The translations under genes were made by a program, and so were the position numbers. Source: Pseudomonadales bacterium (GTDB taxonomy: Bacteria > Pseudomonadota > Gammaproteobacteria > Pseudomonadales > JAUIET01). From it: a stretch of DNA of 64,000 bases. The stretch lies in the NCBI GenBank assembly GCA_045106985.1, contig JBGCFQ010000011.1, positions 131,890 through 195,889 on the forward strand, written 5' to 3'. Shown piece after piece: positions 22,222 through 55,234 of this stretch; the stretch's first letter is position 1; every line of letters begins with the position of its first letter. The notes under the pieces are model-generated. The model made no database searches. It was not told the DNA's origin and worked only from the letters and a program-made list of their open reading frames with translations.

Positions 22222-22315
22222 GTTCGCTCCTTGTGGTTTTCTATGACTATTATGAGGAAAAGATCTTCGTTTGGACGAATTCTGGAAGGAACGTAACGAA
22301 GATCGATAATTGTAT

Positions 22316-23152
22316 CTATTCGCGGTCATCCTGCTCAGCAGTGACCATTCTTTTCGAGCGCTTCAAGATCCAAGAGACCGTTATGCCAGCGGAAATATTA
22401 TGTTCGCGCGCAAAAAGCGGGCTATCTTCATTCTCAGCACCTTGCATATTGAAGTAACGAAAAAATAGGTTCGTGTGCATGTTTTTAAAGTATCGATTCA
22501 GACTAAAACCCCAGTTCAAGCCCGTGTAACCGGCACTTGCTCTATATTCAGCACGACTGGCTGTGCTAAACGGTGCATCCACTCCATAGCTGTATTGATG
22601 ATACTTCTGGTCAGAGAAAATCAGTCCAAAGGAGCTCTTAAGATTCCAATCACCTACCGGCATATGAGCGCTCAATCTAGGGTTGCTTGTCCACCCCTCA
22701 TAGTTACCTGCGTCATCACCAAAAGCAAACGCGGCCCGAACGGGTAATTCAAACTGAAGATGCAGTGCAGCTGAGTCGACAATATCCATTTTAAGATTGG
22801 GCCCTAGCTCCGCAAGCACGTCCAGGTCCGGCATACCGGTGCGAAGCTCGTTGTCTTCGCTATCTACAGGGAAGGACCCGCCTCCACTTATACCCAAACT
22901 AAAACGTTCTGACTCAAATAGTCTGGCACGCAGTCCGTTCCTATCAGCTCGGAGAATTTTGCCTCTGTATTTGAAATAGGGTATGGGCAGTACATACACT
23001 CGGCTATCGTTGGCACCAAGATAATGTGGTTGGCTGAGTGCCGCTATTCCCACACCAAGCTCCCACGCTGGTAACTGCTCTTCGGCATGCAACAACCCGG
23101 CAGGTATAGTTAATAGAAACAAAAGAGAGAGGTAAGAACGTAGGGAGTGCAT
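22316..23152 (-). CDS. MipA/OmpV-family outer-membrane protein
   Basis: 278 aa. Has a signal peptide, then WELGVGIAALSQPHYLGANDSRVYVLPIPYFKYRGKILRADRNGLRARLF, typical of MltA-interacting protein family members. Confidence 0.75.
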   Translation of the reverse strand: MHSLRSYLSLLFLLTIPAGLLHAEEQLPAWELGVGIAALSQPHYLGANDSRVYVLPIPYFKYRGKILRADRNGLRARLFESERFSLGISGGGSFPVDSEDNELRTGMPDLDVLAELGPNLKMDIVDSAALHLQFELPVRAAFAFGDDAGNYEGWTSNPRLSAHMPVGDWNLKSSFGLIFSDQKYHQYSYGVDAPFSTASRAEYRASAGYTGLNWGFSLNRYFKNMHTNLFFRYFNMQGAENEDSPLFAREHNISAGITVSWILKRSKRMVTAEQDDRE

Positions 23153-24389: not shown

Positions 24390-25241
24390 CTAGCCAGCTT
24401 TCACACCAGTATAGGTTTCTGTGGTCGCCAATGCTGAGATCCTTTGCATTATTCGTCGACCCTCAAAGTCCTGAACAGCGTAGTGTTGAACACACTGTTG
24501 ATCCCAAAGCACAAGCTCACCTTCCTGCCAACGGTGGCGGTAGGCATACTCCGGTTTTTGGATGTGCGCTAACAACATACGCAAAATCGCGTCCGCTTCA
24601 ATCGGATTCAATCCCTCAATATGACGCGTATAAGTGGAATTAACAGTCAGCCATTTGCGGCCCGTCTCTCGGTGCTCGCGAACTACCGGATGAGAATAAA
24701 GCAGCCCTTTGACAAGAGCATCCCCCATCATTTCAGCTAAGGGAATACCGCTTTGCCAGCCTAGCTCGTACAGATGACCATAATCATGCACTGCCGTCAG
24801 GCCATCCAGCAGCACTTTCATTTTATCAGACAGGCCATCAAATGCCGCCGCCGTACTAATAAAAGCGGTATCGCCGCCGTGTGCTGGTAGTTGCTTACAA
24901 TGCAACAAATTAACTAAAGGTGGGTGCTGTAAGAACGTTTCGTCGCAGTGCCACGAATCTGCTCGATCTCCCTTCTCGGAATCTATTACCGTCAAAAATG
25001 GGTATTCTTCATCAACACCAAACTGATCGGTTGCATTGTGCTCAAGCTCGCCAAACCGTCTCGCTAACTGAGCATGCTGCTCAGTGCTAAGCTCGCTAGC
25101 CTGCATTGATACAACTTGATGCTGAAACAAAGCGTGCGCAATTTGCTCAATAGTTTGATCACTAAGCGCTTGGGAAAAATCTACTCCTTCTATTCGAGCG
25201 CCGACCAGACCGCCGACTTTACGTATGTTCAAGTCACTCAC
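24390..25241 (-). CDS. TauD/TfdA-family Fe(II)/2-oxoglutarate dioxygenase
   Basis: 283 aa. WHCDETF supplies the HxD iron ligands, followed by GGDTAF. Overall pattern resembles taurine dioxygenase. Confidence 0.8.
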   Translation of the reverse strand: MSDLNIRKVGGLVGARIEGVDFSQALSDQTIEQIAHALFQHQVVSMQASELSTEQHAQLARRFGELEHNATDQFGVDEEYPFLTVIDSEKGDRADSWHCDETFLQHPPLVNLLHCKQLPAHGGDTAFISTAAAFDGLSDKMKVLLDGLTAVHDYGHLYELGWQSGIPLAEMMGDALVKGLLYSHPVVREHRETGRKWLTVNSTYTRHIEGLNPIEADAILRMLLAHIQKPEYAYRHRWQEGELVLWDQQCVQHYAVQDFEGRRIMQRISALATTETYTGVKAG

Positions 25242-25244
25242 TAT

Positions 25245-26726
25245 TTACACCCTTATCTCATTATGCGCCGCTGACCGTCCTGCTTGGCGGCCAAAAAATG
25301 TGGCGTCTCCAATACTCATTCCACTGGCGTAGCCTGCAGCACAGCGCGGTAAACCTGCGGAATTACGCCCGGCGGCGTACAGCCCCGATATTGTATTTCC
25401 TTCGACACTCAATACTTCACCAGTTGGCAAAGTGTCCAGCCCGCCAAAGGTCATTACTGCAAAATAACCTCCAGCACCTAAGGACAATTCAAATGCGGCG
25501 TAAGGTGGTTCATCTAGAGCATGCACGTATTTTTCTGCTTTGTGGAACGCTGGATCTTCGCCGTGCTCGGCATAGCGATTGTAAAAGCTCAGCGTATTAG
25601 CTAAGGCACCCTGAGGGATTTTGAGCTCTTGCTCCAACTCTTCAACTGTCTCACCGGTACCAGCGACCGGATAACCTCCTTGAGGCGGCCGTTCCAGCAC
25701 ATCAAAATAGCGGCTATCAATTATCAGATAGTAACGCTGTTCGTGACGATCGAGTATCGCACTGCCCAATCGGCCGTGATATACGTCTTCGTTAATAAAG
25801 CGTTGGCCGTTGCCATCAACAATAATCGAGTTAAGGAATTGTTTCGGTGGGTAATACGGCGTGCATATAAACCCTTCATGCATATTGATCGCCGCACCAC
25901 CGGCGCCCATTCCTATACGTATTCCGGCGCCCGTGTCGTTAGCGTTTCCGTTCGGGTAATTGCCCAGCGCCAAGCGCGGCGCGTATTTAGCTACCATAGG
26001 CTCGTTCATTATGAAGCCACCGCCGCATAGAACCACACCACAGCGCGCCTTGAAGCAACACTCTGTGCCATTAATTCGCACGACCAAACCAACTACTCGG
26101 CCCTGTTCTGAGATAGCGGTAAGCGCTCGTGCATCGCACACAATATCAACGCCTTTGTCCTTCGCACTGCGAATCAAATTTTCCATAAGCGGTATACCGC
26201 CATGGTCGCCCTTGATTAAAGGCTTGTGGCCGCGCGGCGCTGCTTTCGATGCCGCAGAATAAGGCCAGGCTTCTTCATTGCCTGATATCATCAAGCCCGC
26301 ATAGTTTGGCGTATTGGTATGCTTGCCAGCGTAATATTCAGCCTTAAATTCAATTCCTTGAGAGATTAGCCAATCATAGTGCTCCAGACTATGGTCGCAA
26401 TACAAACGCACCTTAGCCTTATCTGCATTAGGCCCAGAGGCCTCCAGCAAATACTTGTGCATTTCTTCTATATCATCGTCAAAACCGCAGGCTTTCTGGG
26501 TAGGCGTTCCACCACCCATATAAATCAACCCGCCGGCCATTGCAGTAGACCCGCCGGCATCGCTGGCGGCCTCTAGTACAATCACCTTGGCACCCGCATC
26601 GGCAGCCTCGATTGCAGCACTTATTCCAGCGCCGCCGCCGCCAAGAATTAGCACATCACATTTGGCATGCCACTCTTGTACATCTGCTGCAGCCAAAGGC
26701 TTATCCGAGAGAGATTTCTCACTCAT
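25245..26726 (-). CDS. FAD-dependent oxidoreductase (FAD_binding_2 type; 3-ketosteroid-delta1-dehydrogenase/fumarate-reductase-flavoprotein-like)
   Basis: 493 aa. Motifs: DVLILGGGGAGISAAIEAADAGAKVIVLE ... GLYAAGR. Its stop lies 3 nt before the start of the TauD-like gene. Confidence 0.75.
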   Translation of the reverse strand: MSEKSLSDKPLAAADVQEWHAKCDVLILGGGGAGISAAIEAADAGAKVIVLEAASDAGGSTAMAGGLIYMGGGTPTQKACGFDDDIEEMHKYLLEASGPNADKAKVRLYCDHSLEHYDWLISQGIEFKAEYYAGKHTNTPNYAGLMISGNEEAWPYSAASKAAPRGHKPLIKGDHGGIPLMENLIRSAKDKGVDIVCDARALTAISEQGRVVGLVVRINGTECCFKARCGVVLCGGGFIMNEPMVAKYAPRLALGNYPNGNANDTGAGIRIGMGAGGAAINMHEGFICTPYYPPKQFLNSIIVDGNGQRFINEDVYHGRLGSAILDRHEQRYYLIIDSRYFDVLERPPQGGYPVAGTGETVEELEQELKIPQGALANTLSFYNRYAEHGEDPAFHKAEKYVHALDEPPYAAFELSLGAGGYFAVMTFGGLDTLPTGEVLSVEGNTISGLYAAGRNSAGLPRCAAGYASGMSIGDATFFGRQAGRSAAHNEIRV

Positions 26727-26993
26727 TATCTGCTCTACCCGCCGTGCTCATCTTCGCCATTAACCCTACTGTATTCCCAACAGATTTTAACCGATTTTCT
26801 GCAGCATACGATCGGACACCGGGCTTGTCCATCCAGCTAAAGTTGCCATTGGTTTAGCTGTCTTCCTCCGACAGCAAAGTTTGCTTAGAATGGCCTATAA
26901 CATACGCGGGTAGCTGTCGCGCTCACGGTCAAACAAGTTTCTTGATCCTGATGCCGCAATGCTAACCCATGACGAACCCCCTACGGACCCATT

Positions 26994-27728
26994 ATGAGCT
27001 TTGAATCAATTGCCAGTTGGTTTGCAGAAAATTACAACTGGGCTGCGTCGATCATTTGGCTAATTGTTGCAATAGCGTTAACCAAGATTGGCAAATGGCT
27101 AGCGTTTCGAAATAGCGACGTGCGACGCATGCGTGATTGGAATGACGAAGAAGATAAGCCAAAGATGGCTAATCCTAAATGGAGACCCATCGCAAAGGCA
27201 AACACCAAGGTTGGTAGTGCCGCGCATCTATTTCTTATATTTGTGGCCGCGCCATTAACCTTAACTCTAGCAACTATGCCTGCATGGCGATATCTGCTCG
27301 ATATTGTCGTTCTATTACTGGTTTACGATTTTATCTATTATTTCGCACATCGATTTTGGTTTCATGGCAGCTGGATGCCAATGCGAAAGGCACACGCTTT
27401 GCACCATCAGGCACGTGACCCAAGTTGGTCTGACTCGCTTTTCGTTCATCCTGTTGAAACTGTGATTGGACTTTCAATATTTATGATTTCGCTGTTTATT
27501 GCCAGCGCGATCATGGGTGACATTCACGCCGTCGTGGCGGGAATTGCCTACGTTATCTGGACACAGATAAACACAATCAACCACACAAAATTCAACCTGG
27601 ATAAATTCCCGTTTAAGACCCTAGATTATCTAACCGACAAACATCATATCCACCATATTGACATGCATCACGGTAACTACAGCTCGATAACCCCCCTGTT
27701 TGACTGGATGTTCGGGACCCTTGATTAA
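26994..27728 (+). CDS. fatty-acid hydroxylase/sterol desaturase-family membrane protein
   Basis: 244 aa with several TM helices. His boxes: HRFWFH, HALHHQ, HHIHHIDMHH. Confidence 0.8.
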   Translation: MSFESIASWFAENYNWAASIIWLIVAIALTKIGKWLAFRNSDVRRMRDWNDEEDKPKMANPKWRPIAKANTKVGSAAHLFLIFVAAPLTLTLATMPAWRYLLDIVVLLLVYDFIYYFAHRFWFHGSWMPMRKAHALHHQARDPSWSDSLFVHPVETVIGLSIFMISLFIASAIMGDIHAVVAGIAYVIWTQINTINHTKFNLDKFPFKTLDYLTDKHHIHHIDMHHGNYSSITPLFDWMFGTLD

Positions 27729-27729
27729 C

Positions 27730-28440
27730 ATGTCGCGAGCTATGTGCGTGCGCAAGACTCAGCTACATCTCGCTGCTCGAAACGATAGTATTGATAACCT
27801 ATGTGATGCACTGACGAGTATCGCCAATCAGTTAGCCGAAGAAATAACGCTAGCAAAAGTCACTGTTCTTAGAGCGCACAGTGACGACAAAATGCGTGGT
27901 ACCGGAAACATGCAGCCCCTGGCAGCAGCGTTCGACGCAAGTCTAGAGATACTAAACTCGCCGGCTGACATAGACGCAATTCTGAAAGGCCTTTTTAATG
28001 AAGCGGATCTGGACGAGTACGTTCATCTTGATCTCAGCGCATCGCTGACAGGCGAGAATAAAGTGTTCGTACAATCAAAGCCAACGCCCATCCGCTTTCA
28101 GTACTGCATGCGGCGCAGAGCCGATTTCAGCAGCAAACAATATCTGGAATACTATGAGCAACAGCATGCGAAGTTCGGCATAGGAATGCGCGGCATTGAG
28201 GGCTATGCGCAATTCCATGTTGAACCGTTAAACAGTCAGCTCTTGGCAAGCTCAATAAGTTTTGGGGTTCACAATGTCAGCAGCGTGTCCGAATTACACA
28301 TCGCTGATATGGACACTTTCTTCACCGGTATGGCACAAGGCATAGACGCTGGCAATCCGGGAGAAGACGAAGACCGTTTTGTTGATAGACTGCGTTCGGT
28401 TATGTGGGTGTCTGATGAGATATACCGAGCCGGTTTCTAG
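27730..28440 (+). CDS. hypothetical protein, possibly EthD/Dabb-like
   Basis: The ATG lies 1 nt after the upstream stop codon. The segment FQYCMRRRADFSSKQYLEYYEQQHAKFG...YAQFHVEP resembles EthD domains. This is a weak assignment. Confidence 0.4.
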   Translation: MSRAMCVRKTQLHLAARNDSIDNLCDALTSIANQLAEEITLAKVTVLRAHSDDKMRGTGNMQPLAAAFDASLEILNSPADIDAILKGLFNEADLDEYVHLDLSASLTGENKVFVQSKPTPIRFQYCMRRRADFSSKQYLEYYEQQHAKFGIGMRGIEGYAQFHVEPLNSQLLASSISFGVHNVSSVSELHIADMDTFFTGMAQGIDAGNPGEDEDRFVDRLRSVMWVSDEIYRAGF

Positions 28441-28461: not shown

Positions 28462-28764
28462 TCAAACACAGCTTTCAATAAAGTCCGCCAGCTCAAAATC
28501 TTTATGGCTAATGCCATTGGCATCATGTGTTGTTAGCTGAATATCCACTCTGTTGTAGACGTTGAACCATTCGGGGTGGTGGTCTTTCTTTTCCGTATAC
28601 AAAGCGACTGCAGTCATAAAAGCCCACGCTTGATTGAAGTTTTTGAAGCGAAAGGATTTAGCTAACTTACCCGATTGGTCAACAACCCACGCTTTATCGC
28701 AGCTGTTATTCAGCTGCGATAAAGCGGCGCTTAGCTCATCTGGGCTCAACGCTAAGGTAGCCAT
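28462..28764 (-). CDS. phhB: pterin-4a-carbinolamine dehydratase
   Basis: 100 aa. [42 protein letters not shown] is the PCD/DCoH signature. Confidence 0.85.
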
Positions 28765-28778: not shown

Positions 28779-29546
28779 CTATAGTTCCGGCAAGCCGGCC
28801 TGACGCAAACCTGCGGACCAACCACCTTCTGCTTTAAATTCGGCCCCCGTGCTAAAACTCGCCTCATCGGTGGCGAGAAACAAGGTGACGTTGGCTACCT
28901 CATGAGGCAGGCCAACGCGTGGCAATGCTTGATCTTTATAGGTTTCGTTGGCTTGCTCTACGGTCATAAAGTCTTTGCCATGCATATGGGTATAAACGCC
29001 GCCAGGATGCACCGAGTTCACTCGAACGTTGTACTTGCCCATTTCTATAGCGGCTACCTTGGTCATACCTCTTACGGCCCATTTACTGCCAGCGTAAGCA
29101 ATCAAGCCATTCTTAGCCTGCAAACCGTCGATAGAGGAAATATTAATAATCGAACCACCGCCACTGTCCTTCATGCTAGGAAAAACGGCCTGCATTCCAA
29201 GAAAAGGCCCGAGCTGGTTGATGCTAACAATTCGCATGAACTTCTCTTCTGTCATGTCCATGATGTTGTCGGCTTCCATAATCGCCGCATTATTTACTAG
29301 AACCTGTAACTTTCCGAGATCATTAGCTGCGTCTACTACTGCTTTCCAATTCTCTGAATCGCGAACATCCAGCTTCTTAAACACAACTCCGTCGCCAAGC
29401 TCGGCCGCCAGCGCTTCGCCCTCTTCTACCAGAACGTCTGCAATCACTACTTTTGCGCCATTATCCACAAAGGCGCGAACCGTCGCTTCGCCCATTCCTC
29501 GTGAACCACCCGTTACAATTGCGGTTTTTCCTGCCAATCTGGTCAT
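28779..29546 (-). CDS. SDR oxidoreductase, 3-alpha(or 20-beta)-hydroxysteroid dehydrogenase-like
   Basis: 255 aa. LAGKTAIVTGGSRGMGEATVRAFVDNGAKVVIADVLVEEGEALAAELG..., plus YAGSK. It resembles the Streptomyces/Mycobacterium 3alpha,20beta-HSD type, judged from memory. Confidence 0.75.
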   Translation of the reverse strand: MTRLAGKTAIVTGGSRGMGEATVRAFVDNGAKVVIADVLVEEGEALAAELGDGVVFKKLDVRDSENWKAVVDAANDLGKLQVLVNNAAIMEADNIMDMTEEKFMRIVSINQLGPFLGMQAVFPSMKDSGGGSIINISSIDGLQAKNGLIAYAGSKWAVRGMTKVAAIEMGKYNVRVNSVHPGGVYTHMHGKDFMTVEQANETYKDQALPRVGLPHEVANVTLFLATDEASFSTGAEFKAEGGWSAGLRQAGLPEL

Positions 29547-32761: not shown

Positions 32762-33235
32762 ATGATTCCAATCACAAAACGCCCCTTAGACTTAGCGTTG
32801 ATTGCGTTCTTTTCTATATCGGTATGCTACGGCTTACTATTCAGTTTGCCGGAAGGTTTGGGTGTCCCTGTGTCCGCCGACAGTCCTTGGCCTCCATTGC
32901 AGGCGCTGCATAGTTGGGCGGTAGCCGAGGAGCCTGCTCATTTAGACCCGCCACCCAATCTAATCGCCGCCACTTTGTTTGACGGGCTTTTCCAATCGCC
33001 AGCTCTACTGTTTGTGATGTTCGGGTTAATCAAACAGCGGGCCTGGTTGCGACCTCTCGGTCTGTTCTATGCCGGTGCAGCAATAACCAATATGTTTTTC
33101 TATTTCGTGCAGACCTTTCTTGGGCCGCATCCTCCACCCAATACTTTTTACTATCTATTGTTTAATTTACCTTGGCTAATTGCGCCGATGGCTCTCGGTG
33201 TACGCGTGCTGGTGTCAAAAGATCTTGTGACTTAA
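32762..33235 (+). CDS. EXPERA-domain (TMEM97/sigma-2 receptor/EBP-like, DUF2781) membrane protein
   Basis: 157 aa with 4 predicted TM helices. By eye it aligns to human TMEM97: DPPPNLIAATLFDGLFQSPALLF against [21 protein letters not shown], and LIKQRAWLRPLGLFYAGAAITNM against LKGSCKWIRTPAIIYSVHTMTT. Confidence 0.55.
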   Translation: MIPITKRPLDLALIAFFSISVCYGLLFSLPEGLGVPVSADSPWPPLQALHSWAVAEEPAHLDPPPNLIAATLFDGLFQSPALLFVMFGLIKQRAWLRPLGLFYAGAAITNMFFYFVQTFLGPHPPPNTFYYLLFNLPWLIAPMALGVRVLVSKDLVT

Positions 33236-34366: not shown

Positions 34367-35326
34367 ATGGCCACAACATTTAAAAAAGGCCTGCAGGATT
34401 TGGGCAACGGCATTTATGCCTATTTGCAACCTGATGGTTCCTGGGGCTGGAGCAACGCCGGCCTCGTTGTTGATGGGGATCAATCTCTATTAGTGGATAC
34501 TTTATTTGACGAGAAGCTTACGGCTGAAATGCTTAGCACCATGACCGATATTGCCGGGCCTAAGGCTGAGTGCATTAATTGGTTGGTAAACACGCACGCT
34601 AATGGTGATCACTGCCATGGCAATCATTTAGTGAGTAACGCCGAAATTATCGCTTCTTCTACAGCAGCGCGTGAGATGGATGATTTGACGCCAGAAATGA
34701 TGGCTGAGCTAATGCGAGCTGCTTCGGGACTTGGGGACCTGGGTGAATACTTAATTCACTGTTTTGGCGCATTCGACTTTGAACAAATCACTCATACTCC
34801 ACCAACTCAAACTTTCGACGGCGAAAAAACCCTCAAGGTGGGTGATAAAACAGTGCAACTGATCGAAGTGGGGCCTGCGCATACAGGCGGAGACGTTCTC
34901 GCTTGGGTGCCAGATGACAGGACGGTGTTTACAGGCGACATTTTGTTTATCGACGGCACACCGATTATTTGGGCCGGACCAGTTAGCAACTGGATTGCGG
35001 CTTGCGATAGAATTTTGCAGATGGACGCTGAACATATTGTCCCAGGTCATGGACCAATCACCGACAAAAAAGGTGTTCAAGCGGTAGCAAGCTACCTCCA
35101 GCACATTGAACAGCAAGCAAGAATTCGTTTTGACGGCGGCATGGCACTAGCAGAAGCCGTGCACGACATCCCTCTAAATGAATTCGCGGACTGGCTAGAC
35201 CCCGAGCGAATTGCGATTAATGTAGCGACCTTATATCGTGAATTCTCAGGCGAAAAATCACAGGGCGATCCGATTCAGACGCTCACTCTTGCCGCCGAAG
35301 TGTGGAAACGCAGCCTTAAAAAGTAA
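34367..35326 (+). CDS. MBL-fold metallo-hydrolase
   Basis: 319 aa. NTHANGDHCHGN supplies the HxHxDH-type motif, with a later PGHG. Confidence 0.75.
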   Translation: MATTFKKGLQDLGNGIYAYLQPDGSWGWSNAGLVVDGDQSLLVDTLFDEKLTAEMLSTMTDIAGPKAECINWLVNTHANGDHCHGNHLVSNAEIIASSTAAREMDDLTPEMMAELMRAASGLGDLGEYLIHCFGAFDFEQITHTPPTQTFDGEKTLKVGDKTVQLIEVGPAHTGGDVLAWVPDDRTVFTGDILFIDGTPIIWAGPVSNWIAACDRILQMDAEHIVPGHGPITDKKGVQAVASYLQHIEQQARIRFDGGMALAEAVHDIPLNEFADWLDPERIAINVATLYREFSGEKSQGDPIQTLTLAAEVWKRSLKK

Positions 35327-35353
35327 GCCGCGAAAAGTAGTTGAAGGCCCAAA

Positions 35354-35728
35354 CTAGCTTTCGGTCTTGGCTACGAAATTCATCGAAACGGAATTAACGC
35401 AGTGACGGATGTTATTGTCGGTCAGACGCTCGCCTTCAAACACATGACCCAAGTGGCCATCACAGGCCGCGCATAGTATCTCGACCCGACGACCATCAGC
35501 ATCGGCATCACGTTTTATAGCGCCGGGAATTTCGTCGTCAAAACTTGGCCAACCGCAGTGCGAAGGAAATTTATGTTCCGACTTGTACAGTGGCGCATCG
35601 CATTGCTTACAGATGTAATGGCCATCAGCAAAGAAGTCATCGTACTTACCGGTGAAGGGTCGCTCTGTCCCTTTATCGAGAATAATGTACTTCTCTTCGG
35701 CGCTTAGGTCATTGCGTGTTTCAGGCAT
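35354..35728 (-). CDS. msrB: peptide-methionine (R)-S-oxide reductase
   Basis: 124 aa. Two CxxC zinc motifs, GWPSF and RHCVNS. Confidence 0.9.
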
Positions 35729-35841
35729 TGTGAATACTCATTGGAATGGTGTGTTAATAAGGTTGAGCATAATGTATCGAGGATACTTTGAGCAACCGCT
35801 TCTGCACTAGTGAATTTACAGGTTGAATTGTGGTTTGCTGC

Positions 35842-37071
35842 TTAAGTAGGCGCCAGTATGTTCTGGCCGCCCCTTCCGAGAAAGCACCAAGCCAAGGCAA
35901 ATACAGCGGCCAGCAGAACATAGCTGCCAACAATCAAGACAGAATTAGGAGGAGCCAGATAGGCAAGATAAGCGATCAATATCAATATCCCCAGGCGCCG
36001 AGCCCATGCTGTAAAAGCTGGCTCTTTGCGCTCTCCCGCTTCAAGAACACAGCTCGCATCCAACAACACTAAAACGATGAAGACTAAACCTGCAAACCGG
36101 TCCATCCAGGTCGCTGTTAAAAAGGCGAAAATATAATAACTGCCCCACACATACATTGCTGCAAGCGCCGCTAAAGAATACTGTTTAGCAAAACCAGTGC
36201 ATTGGGGGTCATACTTAGCCGGTGTTTCAGGCAGGTCTATCGCTGGTAAGTCATCAGGCCGCCACCCGGTTCTAGCCGTCAATACACTCAGTTTGCGTGC
36301 CACTCCTTTTGTGGCGAACATGTCCTGCAACATGCCCTGAAAAATATGCAGGTTCGCGCGTAGCGGATTCCAACTGTGCAGTGGTTTGCGAATGCCGAAC
36401 TCAACAGGCAGTTCTTTGCGCTCATCTTCAAAGGTACCGAACCATTTATCCCACAAGATAAAAACACCACCATAATTGCGATCAAGATAAGTAACATTAC
36501 GCGCATGGTGTACGCGGTGGTTCGACGGGCTAACGAACACGTGATCAAACCAACCCAGCCTATCTATGTGGCGCGTGTGCACCCAGAACTGATACAGCAA
36601 ATTAACTGACGCAACAGTAAAAAACATCTCGCCGGGTACACCCATTAGAAAACAAGGAATAAAGAACAGCCAGGAGTAGAAGAACGACATACTGGTTTGT
36701 CGCAGTGCGGTGGTCAGGTTGAACTCTTCGCTCTGATGGTGAGCTACGTGTGCTCCCCAGAACAACTGTCGCTCATGACTTAGGCGATGGAACCAGTAGT
36801 AAAGGAAATCGTACGCTATAAAGGTAACGACCCAGGCCAATGGGTCGGCCACCGATATCGTGAGCAGTCCGTAGCGGTCGCCAATGGTTAGAAGCACTAA
36901 GGCGCCCAGGTCGAAAATAACCAATTTGGACCCGGTACTTAAAATCCCCAGGCTCAGGCTACTGACACTGTCATTCAGACGATAATATCCAGTACCCTGT
37001 CTGCGGTCCCACCAAAGTTCCAGAAAAATAAACAGCGCAAAGAACGGTCCAGCGTAAGCAATTAAGCTCAT
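35842..37071 (-). CDS. fatty-acid-hydroxylase-superfamily membrane protein, alkylglycerol monooxygenase (AGMO/TMEM195)-like, with an extra C-terminal 4-TM region
   Basis: 409 aa. FHRLSHERQLFWGAHVAHHQSEEFNLTTALRQ resembles the AGMO-subfamily HHSSE-YNLSTALRQ motif, and HRVHH follows later. Its start overlaps the upstream stop (ATGA, 37068-37071). Confidence 0.65.
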   Translation of the reverse strand: MSLIAYAGPFFALFIFLELWWDRRQGTGYYRLNDSVSSLSLGILSTGSKLVIFDLGALVLLTIGDRYGLLTISVADPLAWVVTFIAYDFLYYWFHRLSHERQLFWGAHVAHHQSEEFNLTTALRQTSMSFFYSWLFFIPCFLMGVPGEMFFTVASVNLLYQFWVHTRHIDRLGWFDHVFVSPSNHRVHHARNVTYLDRNYGGVFILWDKWFGTFEDERKELPVEFGIRKPLHSWNPLRANLHIFQGMLQDMFATKGVARKLSVLTARTGWRPDDLPAIDLPETPAKYDPQCTGFAKQYSLAALAAMYVWGSYYIFAFLTATWMDRFAGLVFIVLVLLDASCVLEAGERKEPAFTAWARRLGILILIAYLAYLAPPNSVLIVGSYVLLAAVFALAWCFLGRGGQNILAPT

Positions 37072-38846
37072 GTTCTTGTTTTTGCCTCTCTGTTTAACCT
37101 GAATAAAGTGCCTGGACGTGCGCCAGTATCAGTATCATCTATAAAAGTGGCTTGCCCGCCGACCATCGTCATCTTGTAACCGCTCGCTCGCTGCATTAAT
37201 CGAGGAGCACCAGAAGGTAAGTCGTTAATAACCCGAGGCGCCTTCATACATAGCTTGGGCAAATCTATAACGTTCAGATCAGCACGCTTACCCTTTTCGA
37301 TCGTACCGCGATCACTTAAGCCATAGAGAGTAGACGGGTCCTGGGTCATCATTTTCACGACCAGCTCAAGGGGCAGCTTCATACCGCGATCGCGATCGCG
37401 TACCCAGTGCTGGAGCATAAAGCTGGGGTAGCTGGCATCACAAATAACATTAACATGCGCTCCTCCATCTGATGATCCTATAACTGTACTGCTGTTCTGC
37501 AATAACTGTTCAGTGGCTCGAAAGTCTCCACCTTTATAGCCAGACATGAACACTTTCAGAAAACCAGGGTTACCATTTTCCGGGTCTGAGTCCAACGTTG
37601 CTTCACAGAGGCTGTCGTAAATGGCGGTATCAGCATTCTCGCCGGTACGTTCCATCCGATGTGCGAGAGAAGCACTTGGCTCTGGTTCAAACACCGGCAC
37701 ATTGCCCCAGGCAAAAGTGCAGTCCAGGCTAGACATTAATATCATACGAGCGTTCAACAACATGGGAGCGGTCGTTGGCTCAGCAATAATTTTGGCCCTG
37801 CGTGCTGGCGTACACAACTCCTTTATTCGCTCAATAAGGGGCAAGTGCGCCACTTCGATATAACTTGGTCGATCAGCAAATGGATTGAAAGTGTCCCAGC
37901 TCATTAACAAACCCCCGCCACCGGGGGAAATAGAGGGACAGAGCCGTGCGCCTTGAGCATTCGCCTTTTCGGTTTCCTCTAAAACAAGATGGTACATTTC
38001 GGGGTTAACGTGATTCTGGCCCGTTAGAAACGCAATTGCGCAACCTGTTTCCAAACTGAGTTGACGATACAATTCCAATTCTCGTAGCGGCGCATCTGGG
38101 TCCTCACCCATTAAGCCGGCTGGCACCACTTGCACCAAACCACTTCCGGCTCGTTTTACCGCGTGAAGTATTTCGACTAATTCTCCGGCTTCTGCAAAAG
38201 TACCTGGTACTGGTTCGCCTGTGACGGATGTGTGCATTGGTATTCTATTGGTAGAGAAAGACAATGCCCCGGCCTCAACCGCTTCGCCCGCCAAATCAGC
38301 CATTGTCGCTATTTGTTTAGCCGTTGCCGGCGCATTTACATCCGCGTCATCACCAAACACATAGGCTCGCAAAGCACCGTGTGGAATCTGCGCTGCGATA
38401 TTAATAGCGCGGTTATCGCGGTCCAATGCATCAAGATATTCGGGAAAAGTTTCCCAGGACCATTTTATGCCGTCGGCTAAAGCTGAACCGGGAATATCCT
38501 CAACACCTTCCATCAAATCAACAAGAAACTGGTGCGAATCAGGCCGAACCGGTGCAAAGCCAACACCGCAGTTGCCCATAATGGCGGTCGTTACTCCGTG
38601 GTAGGCTGAGGGAGCCAACAAATTATCCCACGTGGCCTGGCCGTCGTAATGCGTATGCACATCCACAAAACCAGGAGTGGTCAGCTCACCTTGTGCGTCA
38701 ATTGTCTTGCTGGCGGTTACATTGCTTGGCGCTTGCCCATCGAATATCTCGGCAATCAGACCGTCTTGTATTGCAAGATCTGCCGGCCTTGCTTTAGCTC
38801 CAGTACCATCTACTAAATTGCAATTCTTTATCAGCTTGTCAAACAT
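37068..38846 (-). CDS. amidohydrolase, N-acyl-D-amino-acid deacylase (D-aminoacylase)-family
   Basis: 592 aa. MFDKLIKNCNLVDGTGAKARPADLAIQDGLIAEI...TPGFVDVHTHYDG is the typical D-aminoacylase family N-terminus. Confidence 0.7.
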   Translation of the reverse strand: MFDKLIKNCNLVDGTGAKARPADLAIQDGLIAEIFDGQAPSNVTASKTIDAQGELTTPGFVDVHTHYDGQATWDNLLAPSAYHGVTTAIMGNCGVGFAPVRPDSHQFLVDLMEGVEDIPGSALADGIKWSWETFPEYLDALDRDNRAINIAAQIPHGALRAYVFGDDADVNAPATAKQIATMADLAGEAVEAGALSFSTNRIPMHTSVTGEPVPGTFAEAGELVEILHAVKRAGSGLVQVVPAGLMGEDPDAPLRELELYRQLSLETGCAIAFLTGQNHVNPEMYHLVLEETEKANAQGARLCPSISPGGGGLLMSWDTFNPFADRPSYIEVAHLPLIERIKELCTPARRAKIIAEPTTAPMLLNARMILMSSLDCTFAWGNVPVFEPEPSASLAHRMERTGENADTAIYDSLCEATLDSDPENGNPGFLKVFMSGYKGGDFRATEQLLQNSSTVIGSSDGGAHVNVICDASYPSFMLQHWVRDRDRGMKLPLELVVKMMTQDPSTLYGLSDRGTIEKGKRADLNVIDLPKLCMKAPRVINDLPSGAPRLMQRASGYKMTMVGGQATFIDDTDTGARPGTLFRLNREAKTRT

Positions 38847-38904
38847 TACTCAATCCCTTTGCGAAGTCTGTTGTCATAGTCGAGAGTGTTAGACCATTGT
38901 GCGC

Positions 38905-40107
38905 CTACTCTTGAGGCAACTCTAGCGAGCGTTTCGCTATCAGATTTAGCTGAACCTCAGAGCTACCGCCGGCAATGGTATAGCCTCTGGCATTCATCCA
39001 GTCAGCTGCGCGTTGCGTCTCGTCATAGTATGCGTCTGCATCCCACCTAGTGCCAGAAAGGCCAAGCACGTCCACTAACAATTCCGTTTTTTCCTTTAGG
39101 TTTTCCGTGCCTGCCAGTTTGAAGATAGACGTCATTCGCATATCCAATACCCCAGCCATTCCCTCTTCAAAAGCGCGAGCCTGGGTTAAATCCAGAGCCG
39201 CTTTATTCATCATTTGATCTACCACTCGGGCTCGAAGGTCCGCGTCTTGTAAGCGACCATTATCGTCGACCCCAACATACTCTATTGCGTATTCAAGAAG
39301 CGATTTGGGCGGAGCGGGCATGGTGTCGTCCATAGAGCTCATCATTTTGCGCTCGTGCACAAGCAAAGCCTTGGCGATTGTCCACCCCTGGCCCTCCTCG
39401 CCCACTAGATTGGCTTTGGGCACAACAACATTCTCTAGAAACGAATCGCAGAAATGCGATTCGCCCGTTAGCAAAGGTACTGGTCGAACCGCCACTCCTG
39501 GAGTGTCCATAGGAAACAACACAAAACTTATACCCTGCTGCTTAGCACCTGTGTCGTCTGTACGCACCAAGCAAAACATCCAGTCGGCTTTATCACCGTC
39601 ACTGGTCCAACATTTTTGCCCGTTTACTAGGTAGTGATCTCCTTGGTCCTCGGCCTTGCATCGCAGACTCGCAAGATCGGATCCTGACCCCGGTTCACTG
39701 TACCCCTGGCACCAGCGAATAGATCCATTCACGATATTGGGGATATGCTGCTGTTTCTGCTCCTCGCTGCCAAATTCCAGTAAAGCGGGCCCCAGCATCC
39801 AAATACCATGACCTATCAAGGGGTCGCGGCAATTCAAGCGTTGCATTTCTTTCTTCAAGATTTTGGCTTGTTTTGAATCCAGACCTCCTCCGCCATATTT
39901 GCTGGGCCACTCAGGCACGGTCCACCCGCGTTCAGCCATGCGATCCAGCCATAGCTTTTGATCTTCTGACTTGAAGACAAACTTGCTACCACCCATAACA
40001 TTGTCACTTCGATCAGTAGCCGCAGGGGTACGCATGGATGCTGGGCAGTTGGCTTCTAACCAAGTACGCGTTTCTTCACGAAAGGCGTCGTAATCTATTT
40101 CAGACAT
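38905..40107 (-). CDS. acyl-CoA dehydrogenase family protein (one subunit of an adjacent pair)
   Basis: 400 aa. Motifs: CQGYSEPGSGSDLASL and a C-terminal GGSSEVQLNLIAKR. The expected QxHGGxG region reads LGLSGTRW. Confidence 0.8.
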   Translation of the reverse strand: MSEIDYDAFREETRTWLEANCPASMRTPAATDRSDNVMGGSKFVFKSEDQKLWLDRMAERGWTVPEWPSKYGGGGLDSKQAKILKKEMQRLNCRDPLIGHGIWMLGPALLEFGSEEQKQQHIPNIVNGSIRWCQGYSEPGSGSDLASLRCKAEDQGDHYLVNGQKCWTSDGDKADWMFCLVRTDDTGAKQQGISFVLFPMDTPGVAVRPVPLLTGESHFCDSFLENVVVPKANLVGEEGQGWTIAKALLVHERKMMSSMDDTMPAPPKSLLEYAIEYVGVDDNGRLQDADLRARVVDQMMNKAALDLTQARAFEEGMAGVLDMRMTSIFKLAGTENLKEKTELLVDVLGLSGTRWDADAYYDETQRAADWMNARGYTIAGGSSEVQLNLIAKRSLELPQE

Positions 40108-40154
40108 ATTTCTACTTAATCTCTATGCATTCTAACGAAAAGGTTTTTCTTCGG

Positions 40155-41294
40155 TTAGAAATTGTTCAGTAATGCGAAACGGTTTTTATGAAAACCGCTG
40201 TTGCCTAGCAGTTGCAGCGAAACGCGGCAGCGTTTGAAATACAAACCCACATCAAGTTCATCGGTTACACCAATGCCCCCATGCATTTGCACAGCTTCGT
40301 TTGCAATCAATTGAAAGGTATCGTTGGCACGGCATTTAGCGGTGCTGACGCACGCAGCGGACGTATTGCGTTCTTCGTCAATTGCTGACAAAGCGTCTAC
40401 CACGGCGCTACGAGTTAGCTCTAGCTCAACATACATTTTGGCAGCACGGTGCTGCAGCGCCTGAAAGGAACCTATTTTTGCGCCAAACTGTTCTCGCTCC
40501 TTTAGATACGCAACGGTACGATCAAAAAGATGCTGTGCGCCGCCCAGCATTTCTGCGGCCAGGCAGGCACGAGCACGATCCAGTGCCGCATCTAACGCAG
40601 GAAAGGCATCATCTCTATTCCCCAGCAAAGCACTGTTGGAAACAGCTACGTCACTTAGCTCTATATCCGCATAATCTCGGCTATCAACCAGCTTACTTCT
40701 GTTGCGCTGCAGGCCCTCAACTACTGAGTCGAGTACAAAGAGCGACAAACCATGCTGCTCACCAGCCTCGCCAGATGTACGAGCTAACACAATCACTTTG
40801 TCCGCAGACATACCATCAATCACAAATGCTTTGCAGCCGTTGAGAATATACTGGTCGCCCTCTTGCCGAGCAATAAGCGCTGTCGCCAAGGGTGAATGAT
40901 GGGGACCTTCATCTATTGCTGAAGCGATTATTGACTCGCCAGCCGTAATTGAGGGTAGCAAGGCTTCTTTTTGCTCTTCGTTCCCCGCTAACTCAATCAA
41001 AGAGCCGCTTAGCACAACGCTAGAAAGCATTGGTGTTGCCGTCAACAACTGACCGCATTCTTCAAAAACAGATCCTAAGGCGAGATAGCCAAATGCCAGG
41101 CCGCCATATTGCTCCGGCGCGGTAATGGCCGATAAGCCCAGTTCTGCCATGCGAGCCCACGTCTCAGGATCACAGGCCTGCCTTGTGTCGCTGTCACGCA
41201 ATGCACGGAAATGTTGGGTATTGGCATTATCACGAAGAAAATCACGGGTGCTGTCACGCAGCATTCGTTGTTCTTCGTTAAGAACAAGTGGCAT
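40155..41294 (-). CDS. acyl-CoA dehydrogenase family protein (second subunit of the adjacent pair)
   Basis: 379 aa. VQMHGGIGVTDE is retained, but the C-terminal signature is degenerate (LLGNSGFHKN in place of GxSE(I/V)Q). Confidence 0.8.
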   Translation of the reverse strand: MPLVLNEEQRMLRDSTRDFLRDNANTQHFRALRDSDTRQACDPETWARMAELGLSAITAPEQYGGLAFGYLALGSVFEECGQLLTATPMLSSVVLSGSLIELAGNEEQKEALLPSITAGESIIASAIDEGPHHSPLATALIARQEGDQYILNGCKAFVIDGMSADKVIVLARTSGEAGEQHGLSLFVLDSVVEGLQRNRSKLVDSRDYADIELSDVAVSNSALLGNRDDAFPALDAALDRARACLAAEMLGGAQHLFDRTVAYLKEREQFGAKIGSFQALQHRAAKMYVELELTRSAVVDALSAIDEERNTSAACVSTAKCRANDTFQLIANEAVQMHGGIGVTDELDVGLYFKRCRVSLQLLGNSGFHKNRFALLNNF

Positions 41295-41496
41295 TTAGTA
41301 GCTCCTGGAGCAAGTGTCGTTAAAAGAGCCGAATTATACCTTTTGAAACCCGTTTTGGCGTTTGCATTTCCGAATGGTATGCATGATTAAGAAACGGTAT
41401 AGGATCGAGTTACGTTTTCTTAATTGCTCACTGTAAAAGAGGGCGAAATCGACCTGATAACGATAGAATTAGCCGCACATTCTGTGGAGCAAAATA

Positions 41497-42399
41497 ATGA
41501 GAGTATTGATTGTTGGTGGTACTGGGCTAGTTGGTGGTCATGCAGCTATTCATCTTCGGCAACAAGGTCATGATGTAAGCATTATGGCTCGCAGCGCCCC
41601 AACAGCGACAGATCTTCAGAATATCCCATTCATAGCCGGAAATTACATTGAAGATGATGTGACCGATGGCCGGCTGGAGGGCTTCGATGCTTTAGTATTT
41701 GCGGCGGCACAGGATATACGCCAGATGCCTATGGATGGATCAGTGACGCCCGATGAATTCTTCCAACGTGTGAATGACCATGCTGTTCCCCGCTTTTTTG
41801 AGGCTGCCAAGGCATCCGGTATGCGACGAGCAGTGTACATAGGCAGTTTTTATCCCCAAATTGCGCCCGAGCAAATTGATAAAAGTCCCTATGTTCACTC
41901 GCGTCATGTTACCGATGAAGCGGTTCGAGCACTCAGCTGCGATGAGTTTAATGTATGCAGCGTGAACGCGCCCTTCATTCTTGGGCATCTGCCTGGCTTA
42001 GACATTCCTCACATAGCTGGGCTCGTTGCCTACGTTAGCGGTCATCTCCCCGACCTACCCTTATTTGCCCCACAAGGTGGAACCAACCATATTAGTGCCC
42101 GTTCCGTAGCGCAGGCCGTCAAAGGTGCATTAGAGCGCGGTGAATCAGCTAAGGCATACTTGGTAGGTGACGTAAATATGACTTGGAAGGAATACTTAGA
42201 GTCTTGGGCCAGAGCCGCTGGCGCCTCAACTGTGCTTGAGGTAAAAGAAGATGACCATCCTATTTTGCCTAATGTAATTATGTTCGCCGGCGCTGGCGCT
42301 TTAGTGAGCTATGAGCCAGATGCGGCGGAAACAGCATTGCTGGGTTATAGCCGCGATCAAATTGCCGAAGAAATACGTGCCGTTGTAGCGTCGGCATAA
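41497..42399 (+). CDS. NAD(P)-dependent epimerase/dehydratase (extended SDR) family protein
   Basis: 300 aa. MRVLIVGGTGLVGGH Rossmann motif. Confidence 0.75.
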   Translation: MRVLIVGGTGLVGGHAAIHLRQQGHDVSIMARSAPTATDLQNIPFIAGNYIEDDVTDGRLEGFDALVFAAAQDIRQMPMDGSVTPDEFFQRVNDHAVPRFFEAAKASGMRRAVYIGSFYPQIAPEQIDKSPYVHSRHVTDEAVRALSCDEFNVCSVNAPFILGHLPGLDIPHIAGLVAYVSGHLPDLPLFAPQGGTNHISARSVAQAVKGALERGESAKAYLVGDVNMTWKEYLESWARAAGASTVLEVKEDDHPILPNVIMFAGAGALVSYEPDAAETALLGYSRDQIAEEIRAVVASA

Positions 42400-48223: not shown

Positions 48224-48844
48224 CTACTCGGAAATTATTCCCCTCTTGCGCAACTCAGCCAGTAAAACATCTACTTCTTCTTCCAGCGACATGGTCGCGC
48301 TATTTATCACAATCTCTGCGTTGTCGGGTGCCTCATAAGGGTCGTCAATCCCTGTAAAGTTTTTTATTTCACCTGCACGGGCTTTCTTGTATAGACCCTT
48401 TGGGTCACGACTTTCAGCAACGTCTAAAGGCACGTCAACAAACACCTCGATAAACTCCATGCCAGATGCTTCATGCAAAGCACGAACCTGGTCACGATCG
48501 GCGCGATAAGGACTGACAAAACTGGATAACGCAATCACTCCTGTATCAACAAAAAGCTTAGCAATTTCGCCGATGCGTCGAATATTTTCGGTGCGATCTT
48601 CGGCAGTAAATCCAAGATTCTTATTGATCCCTAGTCGAACGTTATCACCGTCCAATCGATAACTAAGACGCCCAGCTTCGTGCAGAACTCCCTCCAGCGC
48701 GACAGCCACTGTACTTTTGCCACTGCCCGACAAGCCTGTGAACCAAATTGTTGCGCCTTTCTGGCCAAGTAGCTTATTGCGATGGTCTCTGGTGATATCA
48801 CCCTCATGCCAAGTAACATTCGTCGCCTTCTGCTTTGCCATCAC
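48224..48844 (-). CDS. cysC: adenylyl-sulfate (APS) kinase
   Basis: 206 aa. Motifs: WFTGLSGSGKST P-loop, LDGDNVR, FVSPYRADR. Confidence 0.9.
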   Translation of the reverse strand: MMAKQKATNVTWHEGDITRDHRNKLLGQKGATIWFTGLSGSGKSTVAVALEGVLHEAGRLSYRLDGDNVRLGINKNLGFTAEDRTENIRRIGEIAKLFVDTGVIALSSFVSPYRADRDQVRALHEASGMEFIEVFVDVPLDVAESRDPKGLYKKARAGEIKNFTGIDDPYEAPDNAEIVINSATMSLEEEVDVLLAELRKRGIISE

Positions 48845-54018: not shown

Positions 54019-55185
54019 TTACAGCTTGCCTAATAGCGCACCACCAGTAGGAACACCCACACCGGAAGTAACGAGCACGTTATTAATGTTCTTCTTAGGC
54101 TGATTAACAGACGATCCGCGAACCAGTTTGGCAGCTTCAACGATTCCGTTTACCCCATGAATGTAAGCTTCGCTGAGCTGTCCTCCATGAGTGTTGGTCG
54201 GCAAGCGGCCGTCTGCTCGCAGCTCTCCATCGAGCACAAACTGGGGGGCTTTGTATGGCTCACAAAAACCCCAGCTTTCAAGTTGCCACAACACGATAGG
54301 CGTAAAGGCGTCGTAAATGATCGCAGCGTCTATATCATCCGGGGTAAGCCCACTTTGTTTGTAAGCTTCTTTTGCCGCAATATCCATCGACGGGATGGCT
54401 GCAATCTCGGGGCGATAAAAACTGGTCATAGACTCCATATTAGCCGCGGCTGCTTGTCCCACTCCTTTTATAGCGACAGGAGTTTGTTTCAGATCCTTAG
54501 CTCGCTCGGCCGTTGTAACAATCACTGCACTGCCGCCGTCGCTTTCAAGACAACAATCAAGCAGCTTCAGTGGAGACACGATTTTACGGGCCGTGTCGTA
54601 CGTTTCACGGTCAAACGGCTGCTCGTAAAACAACGCCGCTGGATTCTTAGATGCAAATTCGCGCTGAAGGTGGGCAATCTCAAACATTGCGTCCTGACAA
54701 TCTTCGGTTAGATGCATATAGCGCTGCGAATACATCGCCACCCAACTAGCCGGCGTCATCAAGCCATAGGGCGTATACCACCCCCAATGAATAGCGTCCG
54801 CTGTGAGCAATGGGCCAGAAACGCCAGAACTATAACGATGGCCGGATCGTCCATTCAACGATCGATAGCAAACAACGCATTCAGCCATACCGCTGGCAAC
54901 CGCCATAACGGCCTGGTGGATAAGGCCTGTAGCCGCGCCACCGCCATGCGGAACTCGAGAGTAAAAAGTAAGGTCGCCAATGCCGACCGCTCTCGCTAAT
55001 TCAATTTCGTCTGTATTGTCCAGGGTGAAGGTCGTCATACCATCGACATCTGACGGCTTCAGCCCCGCATCATCGAGCGCATCTCGCACTGCCTCGGCCG
55101 CCAGCTGAAGCTCAGAACGCCCCGAATTCTTTGAAAACTCAGTGTTAGCCAGACCTACAATGGCCGATTTATCACAAATACTCAT
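54019..55185 (-). CDS. thiolase-fold lipid-transfer protein (SCP-x/Ltp2-like; candidate retro-aldolase)
   Basis: 388 aa. Thiolase-like fold with a C-terminal NTHGGQLSEAYIHGVNGI. It occupies the position that ltp2 holds after chsH2-chsH1 in M. tuberculosis. Confidence 0.7.
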   Translation of the reverse strand: MSICDKSAIVGLANTEFSKNSGRSELQLAAEAVRDALDDAGLKPSDVDGMTTFTLDNTDEIELARAVGIGDLTFYSRVPHGGGAATGLIHQAVMAVASGMAECVVCYRSLNGRSGHRYSSGVSGPLLTADAIHWGWYTPYGLMTPASWVAMYSQRYMHLTEDCQDAMFEIAHLQREFASKNPAALFYEQPFDRETYDTARKIVSPLKLLDCCLESDGGSAVIVTTAERAKDLKQTPVAIKGVGQAAAANMESMTSFYRPEIAAIPSMDIAAKEAYKQSGLTPDDIDAAIIYDAFTPIVLWQLESWGFCEPYKAPQFVLDGELRADGRLPTNTHGGQLSEAYIHGVNGIVEAAKLVRGSSVNQPKKNINNVLVTSGVGVPTGGALLGKL

Positions 55186-55234
55186 TCAATAACCTCTTGC
55201 TGATTCCGCTGTATGACTGTGCTTATCGCTGCTC

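Follow-up and report, generated by a model that had tools for sequence, protein, structure and literature searches.

A predicted bacterial AGMO-family membrane enzyme in a patchily kept gene string of a Pseudomonadales bacterium

Animal alkylglycerol monooxygenase (AGMO, also TMEM195; EC 1.14.16.5) is, according to a review, the one known enzyme that splits the ether bond of alkylglycerols, and it is a labile protein that has resisted purification (PMC7911779). The human enzyme has nine transmembrane (TM) segments and depends on nine essential histidines (132, 136, 145, 148, 149, 201, 221, 224 and 225; PMC7911779, Figure 2 legend) and on six further essential residues (Q162, D233, N235, Y236, W243 and D244; PMC7911779). 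Here, we analyse a 64,000-nt stretch of DNA from a Pseudomonadales bacterium (contig JBGCFQ010000011.1)—hereafter the window, in whose numbering all coordinates are given—and within it a string of four minus-strand genes (35842..41294) that encode, in order of reading, two acyl-CoA dehydrogenases (ACADs), a metal amidohydrolase and a membrane protein resembling AGMO. An earlier note on this string, made from the letters alone, had proposed that its products could cleave an amide- or ether-linked lipid and then beta-oxidise the released chain. On balance, we think it fairly probable that the four genes do not make up a dedicated pathway of four enzymes but are a lineage-specific mosaic, probably co-transcribed: the AGMO-like gene is missing or cut short in relatives, and it was never found with the amidohydrolase in 160 distant loci.

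Among bacterial AGMO-like enzymes, PRUB680 of Pseudoalteromonas rubra, a prodigiosin cyclase (de Rond et al. 2017, cited in PMC6667630), is the only one with a reported function that we found in the literature. It is described as a membrane di-iron oxygenase that activates C–H bonds of an alkyl chain and is encoded away from its pathway genes, and members of the AGMO-like family considered here also usually stand alone. The window carries no prodiginine genes, however, and the likeness to PRUB680 drawn here is one of description, not of sequence. The ornithine-lipid hydroxylase OlsE is likewise a bacterial enzyme of the FA_hydroxylase superfamily, and it acts on an amide-linked aminolipid. For the remaining genes, the closest described systems are the heteromeric ACADs (4X28; Tcur3481–Tcur3483 of 6WY8/6WY9; PimCD of Rhodopseudomonas), which share with the string two adjacent ACAD genes, one of them for a predicted catalytic subunit in the string, and the D-aminoacylases (1M7J, 1V4Y, 3GIP, 9G5M) together with the carbohydrate deacetylase PpOngB (9KB1).

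Family membership of the four encoded proteins

The last gene of the string (35842..37071, minus strand) encodes a 409-aa protein with nine predicted TM segments that matches the Pfam FA_hydroxylase family (E 4e-28). The earlier note had likened it to AGMO on the basis of a His-box motif, HHQSEEFNLTTALRQ at residues 111-125, and the resemblance proved to extend well beyond this one motif. H95, 99, 108, 111 and 112 match human histidines at an offset of 37 residues and H165, 185, 188 and 189 do so at an offset of 36, while Q125, D197, N199, Y200, W207 and D208 correspond, at the same offsets (37/36), to the six further essential residues of the human enzyme. All 15 of the 15 essential AGMO residues are present, and across 20 homologues the nine histidines are invariant and the others invariant or nearly so. 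In the AlphaFold2 model (mean predicted local distance difference test score, pLDDT, 78), the helices at residues 2-25, 32-67, 77-100, 119-142, 147-164, 293-317, 322-344, 352-372 and 378-398 fall at the positions of human TM1–9 minus 37, so that all nine segments are colinear with those of the animal enzyme. This also settles the nature of the hydrophobic block at the C-terminus (about residues 293-398), which the earlier note had taken for an extra four-TM region: the four helices are indeed modelled, but they correspond to human TM6–9 and thus belong to the normal AGMO topology rather than being an addition to it.

The window protein differs from human AGMO in being bacterial, in lacking the first ~37 residues, and in its C-terminal domain, for which the Pfam AGMP_C profile (PF24858) returned no match even at E <=10. 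Two homologues, P0069 and P0080, fall just under the AGMP_C cutoff (27.3 and 24.8 bits vs 28.3), and throughout the family this half of the protein shows little conservation. As a control, the other FA_hydroxylase protein of the window shares the His boxes, has only three of the six extra residues and lacks the C-terminal domain. JGI gives many homologues the name alkylglycerol monooxygenase, as NCBI does for one. Neither Foldseek (best E 0.94) nor phmmer (no match) recovered a significant match to the AGMO-like protein in the PDB; there is thus no structural anchor, and the family assignment rests on mapping residues and topology onto the human positions. The only NCBIfam match of the 409-aa protein was to OlsE (NF052566), at 76 bits against a cutoff of 475 and confined to the His-box core, which rules out membership of that family. 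From these correspondences, the protein is a predicted bacterial member of the AGMO family, to which ether cleavage and tetrahydropterin dependence would extend only by analogy. Membership does not fix the substrate, because PRUB680 performs an oxidative cyclisation. The bacterial AGMO-like family is very large—at least 8,000 candidates were scored, nearly all at E <=1e-10—and its members are spread over Halieaceae, Porticoccaceae, SAR86, Pseudomonas and other groups.

The string opens with the ACAD pair, a 379-aa protein (ACAD-beta; 40155..41294, minus strand) followed by one of 400 aa (ACAD-alpha; 38905..40107, minus strand), and the pairing read in the earlier note is borne out by Pfam ACAD N/M/C domains in both. 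The best PDB matches of ACAD-alpha are 4x28_A (E 8e-39, full length) and then Tcur3483 of 6wy9_A/6wy8_B, and those of ACAD-beta include 6wy8_A (Tcur3481) and 4x28_D. In a HMMER alignment, E252 ('VHER') of ACAD-alpha falls opposite E247 ('NHER') of 4x28_A, the catalytic base according to the ChsE4–ChsE5 literature. ACAD-beta has an Ala opposite this position and 'LLGNSG' at the MCAD-type Glu position, and its nucleotide loop is degenerate (AIDEGPHHSPLA vs GYSEPGSGSDLA in ACAD-alpha). Because the Glu and an intact nucleotide loop occur in only one of the two adjacent ACADs, the pair bears the predicted signature of an alpha2beta2-type heteromer with a single catalytic subunit: ACAD-alpha would be the catalytic and ACAD-beta the non-catalytic partner.

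Set against the described heteromeric ACADs, the window pair has low identity to the solved structures and lies far under the PimC and PimD cutoffs. The best NCBIfam match of ACAD-alpha is the PimC large subunit (273 bits vs a cutoff of 624) and that of ACAD-beta the PimD small subunit (222 vs 653), so that neither protein reaches the equivalog cutoffs of PimCD pimeloyl-CoA dehydrogenase (TIGR03204/TIGR03203). The enzymes of 4x28 and 6wy8/6wy9 are steroid side-chain ACADs.

The third gene (37068..38846, minus strand) encodes a 592-aa metal amidohydrolase (Amidohydro_3, E 9e-43) that the earlier note had assigned to the D-aminoacylase family, an assignment on which fold and phmmer agree. By phmmer, the protein matches D-aminoacylase 1m7j (E 1e-28) over residues 2-201 and 449-581. 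Its AlphaFold2 model (pLDDT 84) finds D-aminoacylase 1v4y/1m7j as the best Foldseek match (E 1e-30, target TM-score 0.77, 22% identity), followed by the N-acyl-D-Glu deacylase 3gip, the Klebsiella D-acylase 9g5m and the carbohydrate deacetylase PpOngB (9kb1); over 1v4y, 1m7j and 3gip, E runs from 1e-30 to 1e-29. H64/H66 (HxH) and C93 (GNCG) align with D-aminoacylase metal motifs, and an invariant D460-G-G-A-H464 lies in the C-terminal region. The central ~250 residues (~200-450) gave no sequence alignment, even with a family profile against PDB sequences, which leaves two further His ligands unplaced. The TIM-barrel fold, the HxH and GNCG motifs, the N-terminal beta-sandwich and the C-terminal segments are shared with D-aminoacylases and PpOngB, whereas the window protein exceeds them in length by about 100 residues and shows only 19-23% identity. 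Its scores stay under the cutoff of every NCBIfam equivalog. It is one of a very large, uncharacterised subfamily whose members, thousands of them at 55-58% identity, measure ~580 aa and occur in Myxococcota, Deltaproteobacteria and Gammaproteobacteria. In two of the loci fetched from relatives (designated L with a number), L005 and L007, sulfotransferases flank the amidohydrolase homologue.

Layout and conservation of the gene string

The four co-directional open reading frames (ORFs) lie as the earlier note had placed them on the minus strand, with gaps of 47 nt between the two ACAD genes and 58 nt between ACAD-alpha and the amidohydrolase gene, and with an ATGA stop/start overlap (37068..37071, minus strand) at the last junction. 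This junction reads ...ACA AGA ACA TGA / ATG AGC TTA..., the stop of the amidohydrolase gene overlapping the start of the hydroxylase gene, and the overlap is real because the 409-aa ORF begins just where proteins of its family have their conserved N-terminus. Genes one, three and four, at least, have a plausible Shine–Dalgarno sequence in front of them, which for ACAD-beta is AGGAG, 8 nt 5' of the ATG. A methionine sulfoxide reductase gene, msrB (SelR, E 3e-42; 35354..35728, minus strand), follows 113 nt downstream of the AGMO-like gene on the same strand and may be a fifth gene of the transcription unit. On the other side, a 202-nt intergenic region (41295..41496), by its position the presumed promoter region in both directions, separates the string from a divergent gene for an NAD-dependent epimerase/dehydratase-family protein (41497..42399, plus strand; Epimerase, E 6e-12). 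No terminator-like site was found in any intergenic gap of the string, including the 113-nt gap before msrB; a scan of 35000-41700 for sigma-70 consensus sites returned none against 7.7 expected by chance, an uninformative outcome. The genes are probably co-transcribed in this genome, possibly with msrB; the signs of this are indirect, namely a shared strand, gaps of at most 58 nt, a 4-nt overlap and no terminator-like site between genes. The arrangement itself is not statistically unusual for the window, where 39 of the 55 adjacent gene pairs are co-directional—17 of these with a gap of at most 60 nt and 4 overlapping—and runs of four to nine co-directional genes are common.

Close relatives keep different parts of the string. 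All four genes recur in L001 (amidohydrolase 81% and ACAD-alpha 84% identical), with a 16-nt gap instead of the ATGA overlap. Between the window and this locus, the amidohydrolase, ACAD-alpha and msrB products are 81-84% identical, the AGMO-like protein 68% and ACAD-beta 67%; within the AGMO-like protein, identity is 78% in the catalytic half and 43% in the C-terminal domain. In the nearest relative, L088 (amidohydrolase 91%), both flanks are syntenic and the AGMO-like gene has shrunk to an ORF of 137 aa. Over its first 131 codons, this remnant is 96% identical to the window; beyond them, ~830 bp of the window (36678 to 35847) are replaced by ~100 bp of L088 (2742-2842), a deletion that removes H165, H185, H188 and H189—the last four of the nine essential histidines—along with the whole C-terminal domain. 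The overlap geometry is kept, with the two ORFs overlapping at 2349-2352 of L088, but the first codon of the remnant translates as Leu and is not ATG. An M13 peptidase gene (5138-7204 of L088), which the window does not have, stands between AhpC-like and EXPERA genes in the same locus.

In L089 (82%) and L090 (77%), the epimerase gene diverges from an ACAD–ACAD–amidohydrolase series that is followed by other genes, and neither locus has an AGMO-like gene or remnant. Of the four closest relatives that carry the amidohydrolase, three thus lack the AGMO-like gene or have it cut short by a deletion. L171 (ACAD-alpha 74%) has PolB, SnoaL and epimerase genes diverging from the ACAD pair, which is followed directly by msrB, with neither an amidohydrolase nor an AGMO-like gene; in L172 (62%), the pair lies among other ACADs. 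The beta–alpha pair is therefore kept in all relatives examined for it (L001, L089, L090, L171 and L172), and the epimerase gene adjoins it divergently in L001, L089, L090 and L171. The msrB gene comes after the string in L001 and L088, and directly after ACAD-alpha in L171. The amidohydrolase gene adjoins the ACAD pair only in relatives whose amidohydrolase is at least 77% identical, a range in which shared ancestry alone explains the link.

For more distant loci, we surveyed 80 species-representative genome loci anchored on AGMO-like proteins 40-54% identical to that of the window, with 8 kb on either side, and 80 metagenome loci anchored on amidohydrolases 40-53% identical. An amidohydrolase homologue lay within 8 kb of the AGMO-like gene in none of the 80 genome loci, and an AGMO-like gene lay near the amidohydrolase homologue in none of the 80 metagenome loci. 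The co-conservation on which the earlier note had let its proposal depend does not, therefore, extend beyond close relatives. A single generic ACAD occurred several kb off in a minority of the AGMO-anchored loci; among the amidohydrolase-anchored loci, any ACAD-like match was found in 8 of 80 and an upstream ACAD pair in none. Seven loci inspected by hand agree with the lack of wider linkage. Clustering the neighbours in 69 usable AGMO-like loci recovered genus-level housekeeping synteny only, with products resembling DedA/Ppk/HemB in Pseudomonas and Ogt/Ada in Halieaceae, as judged from the sequences of cluster members and without a family search; a conserved partner of the AGMO-like family was rejected on this basis. 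In most genomes, the family normally stands alone.

Competing readings of the string

In the lineage-specific mosaic, the heteromeric ACAD pair and the divergent epimerase-family gene are the stable core, and the stretch from ACAD-alpha to msrB is a variable slot that may have nothing in it, the amidohydrolase by itself, or the amidohydrolase followed by an intact or degraded AGMO-like gene. Among uncultured marine Pseudomonadales, the amidohydrolase occupies this slot in one narrow clade, and the AGMO-like gene is added to it in only part of that clade. Going by their families, the ACAD pair, with a single active site in each alpha–beta dimer, would dehydrogenate a bulky or unusual acyl-CoA at the alpha,beta position, the amidohydrolase would be a metal-dependent hydrolase that splits an N-acyl bond of a small molecule, and the AGMO-like protein would be an O2-dependent di-iron C–H hydroxylase acting on a lipid alkyl chain; hydroxylation at the carbon adjoining an ether oxygen would cleave the ether. 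The AGMO-like enzyme would act on a substrate of its own, independently of the other three genes, and the ATGA overlap may couple translation here while reflecting gene position and not a conserved functional partnership. Each gene belongs to a known family, and the string is a recent, local juxtaposition.

Several points weigh against the mosaic. The 4-nt overlap is a classic sign of co-expression, its geometry is kept in L088, and the gain of a gene into an operon can reflect functional recruitment. The AGMO-like gene is intact in both the window and L001, and the 78% identity of their catalytic halves implies purifying selection for some time. The clade in which the amidohydrolase adjoins the ACAD pair comprises five sampled loci, with no intermediates between 77% and 58% identity, and because the loci are few and intermediate identities unsampled, a young but real pathway is still compatible with the data. 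The L088 deletion, finally, was seen in a single metagenome contig and may stem from misassembly or from a minority variant.

In such a young pathway, close to what the earlier note had in mind, the AGMO-like enzyme and the amidohydrolase would act on a lipid with ether and/or amide linkages (an alkylglycerol, a lipoamino acid, an N-acyl amino acid or a conjugated bile salt) to set a fatty chain free, and the ACAD pair would start the beta-oxidation of that chain. The shared strand, short gaps, ATGA coupling and missing terminators speak for it, and so does the intact set in L001; the window also abounds in genes of lipid and acyl-CoA metabolism (a 625-aa ACAD, thioesterases, a ChsH2-like hydratase, an Ltp2-like protein and many short-chain dehydrogenases/reductases, SDRs), and a pterin-4a-carbinolamine dehydratase gene lies ~7 kb from that of the AGMO-like protein, AGMO being pterin-dependent. 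We nonetheless regard this route as unlikely, given that the amidohydrolase and ACADs persist in L088, L089 and L090 with the AGMO-like gene deleted or absent, that L171 has neither amidohydrolase nor AGMO-like gene, and that the wider surveys found no co-occurrence in either set of 80. The string moreover encodes no acyl-CoA ligase, transporter or aldehyde dehydrogenase, the last of which would be needed after AGMO-type cleavage, and the pterin dehydratase is unlinked to AGMO-like genes in 172 loci. A bolder form, to which we assign a slim chance, holds that a bacterial AGMO orthologue was recruited by translational coupling into the amidohydrolase/ACAD operon of this small clade and opened a new catabolic route for marine lipids that have both ether (or alkyl) and amide linkages. 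Its substrates might include ether-linked aminolipids, N-acyl taurines, N-acyl amino acids or alkylglycerols, and the nearby pterin-4a-carbinolamine dehydratase would recycle the cofactor; if true, a bacterial AGMO would for the first time have a physiological role in the breakdown of ether lipids.

Alternatively, the ACAD pair and amidohydrolase, with the divergent epimerase gene, may form a three-gene module for a steroid-like or otherwise bulky N-acylated compound—for example, deconjugation of a taurine- or glycine-conjugated bile acid followed by side-chain dehydrogenation—to which the AGMO-like gene would be an unrelated passenger. L001, L089 and L090 all have these three genes together with the epimerase gene, and L088 agrees over the part that its contig covers. 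Of the ACADs with solved structures, the closest are the heteromeric 4x28 and 6wy8/6wy9 enzymes, which are steroid side-chain ACADs, and the window holds an SDR resembling 3alpha,20beta-hydroxysteroid dehydrogenase (E 7e-61) and a ChsH2/Ltp2-like module. In L089, the amidohydrolase gene abuts a block of Rieske, FA_hydroxylase/EthD, KstD-like flavoprotein and TauD genes, a block also found at 24390-28440 of the window. Yet the link holds only at 77% identity or above, the neighbours of amidohydrolases at 40-58% are unrelated, and related ACAD pairs do without the amidohydrolase in L171 and L172. No steroid-specific NCBIfam cutoff is reached (KstD 174 vs 789, with the ACADs far below PimC/PimD and IpdE2), and the window has no ring-cleavage genes; we therefore give the module little probability. 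That the AGMO-like gene is a decaying passenger under relaxed selection, irrelevant or inactive here, seems to us very unlikely. The gene is cut in the nearest relative and absent in others, and its product is 68% identical to that of L001, where others reach 81-84%, with only 43% in the C-terminal domain. Against decay, the window ORF is intact with its conserved N-terminus and all 15 essential residues, the catalytic half is 78% identical to that of L001, ACAD-beta is equally divergent at 67%, and the C-terminal half is variable family-wide and not only here. The lineage-specific mosaic thus remains the reading that we favour.

Other genes of the window and the wider AGMO-like family

The gene for pterin-4a-carbinolamine dehydratase (28462-28764, minus strand; Pterin_4a, E 1e-31) follows, after a gap of 14 nt, an SDR gene (28779-29546, minus strand) whose product is closest to 3alpha,20beta-hydroxysteroid dehydrogenase (2hsd, E 7e-61). 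The two adjoin the second FA_hydroxylase gene of the window, ~7 kb from the AGMO-like gene, with no aromatic amino-acid hydroxylase gene nearby. As a marker of AGMO-like genes, a pterin dehydratase homologue was found in none of the 172 fetched loci, and no dihydropteridine reductase was among the best 60 matches listed for the SDR; the dehydratase was rejected as evidence for an AGMO link on these two grounds. The second FA_hydroxylase (244 aa; 26994-27728, plus strand) overlaps by 29 nt the gene of a 246-aa EthD-domain protein (27700-28440, plus strand), and neither protein matched any NCBIfam model. The pair is kept in L089 (80% and 58% identical), where a Rieske oxygenase gene (Ring_hydroxyl_A) stands 4 nt immediately upstream on the same strand. 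At 24390-26726 (minus strand), a TauD-family dioxygenase gene (taurine dioxygenase model, 230 vs a cutoff of 313) lies 3 nt downstream of that of a KstD-like flavoprotein (FAD_binding_2; NF005510, 602 bits), and this pair too is kept in L089 (81% and 80%), close to the amidohydrolase gene.

Another group, at 54019-56644 (minus strand), comprises three genes: that of an Ltp2-like 'lipid-transfer protein' thiolase, which scores above cutoff (NF005892, 565 bits), that of a 139-aa HadB/MaoC-like protein and that of a ChsH2-like hydratase with FAS1_DH_region, zf-ChsH2 and OB_ChsH2_C domains. The trio resembles the hydratase/aldolase module for steroid or branched side chains of actinobacteria. Directly upstream lies a 692-aa ORF (56819-58897, minus strand) with no Pfam or NCBIfam match at E <=1e-5. 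The KstD-like, ChsH2-like, Ltp2-like, 3alpha,20beta-hydroxysteroid dehydrogenase-like and TauD genes are suggestive of steroid or bile-salt metabolism, but none reaches a steroid-specific NCBIfam cutoff. A 157-aa membrane protein of the EXPERA/EBP superfamily (32762-33235, plus strand), from the mostly eukaryotic sterol isomerase/TM6SF family, is kept in L088, where its gene adjoins that of acyl-CoA thioesterase II.

Farther from the string, a nine-gene run at 267-8247 (minus strand) includes genes for an MttB-family methyltransferase (743 bits), a B12-binding corrinoid protein, DUF1638, MTHFR with its C-terminal partner, a pterin-binding methyltransferase and a RACo-type corrinoid activase, and looks like a route of quaternary-amine (glycine-betaine-type) demethylation that feeds methyl-tetrahydrofolate. 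The window also has two sulfotransferases (12642-15349, plus strand, and 48224-48844, minus strand), one of them TPR-fused, with an adjoining TonB-dependent receptor (9683-12499) and an APS kinase gene elsewhere. An Rv3169-family gene (379 bits vs a cutoff of 150; 21103-22329, minus strand), of a family named after a Mycobacterium tuberculosis protein and here in a gammaproteobacterial metagenome-assembled genome, overlaps by 14 nt the upstream MipA-family gene (22316-23152, minus strand).

As a recent and patchy juxtaposition of members of known families, the four-gene string in itself matters little. The wider value lies in the very large bacterial family to which its last gene belongs, found in marine Gammaproteobacteria, Pseudomonas and other groups and colinear with animal AGMO in its shared catalytic residues and nine TM segments. 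Apart from one prodigiosin cyclase, the bacterial members have no assigned physiological function, a question that concerns the family as a whole and is independent of this locus. Since animal AGMO is so labile (PMC7911779), a stable bacterial orthologue could prove the more tractable enzyme.

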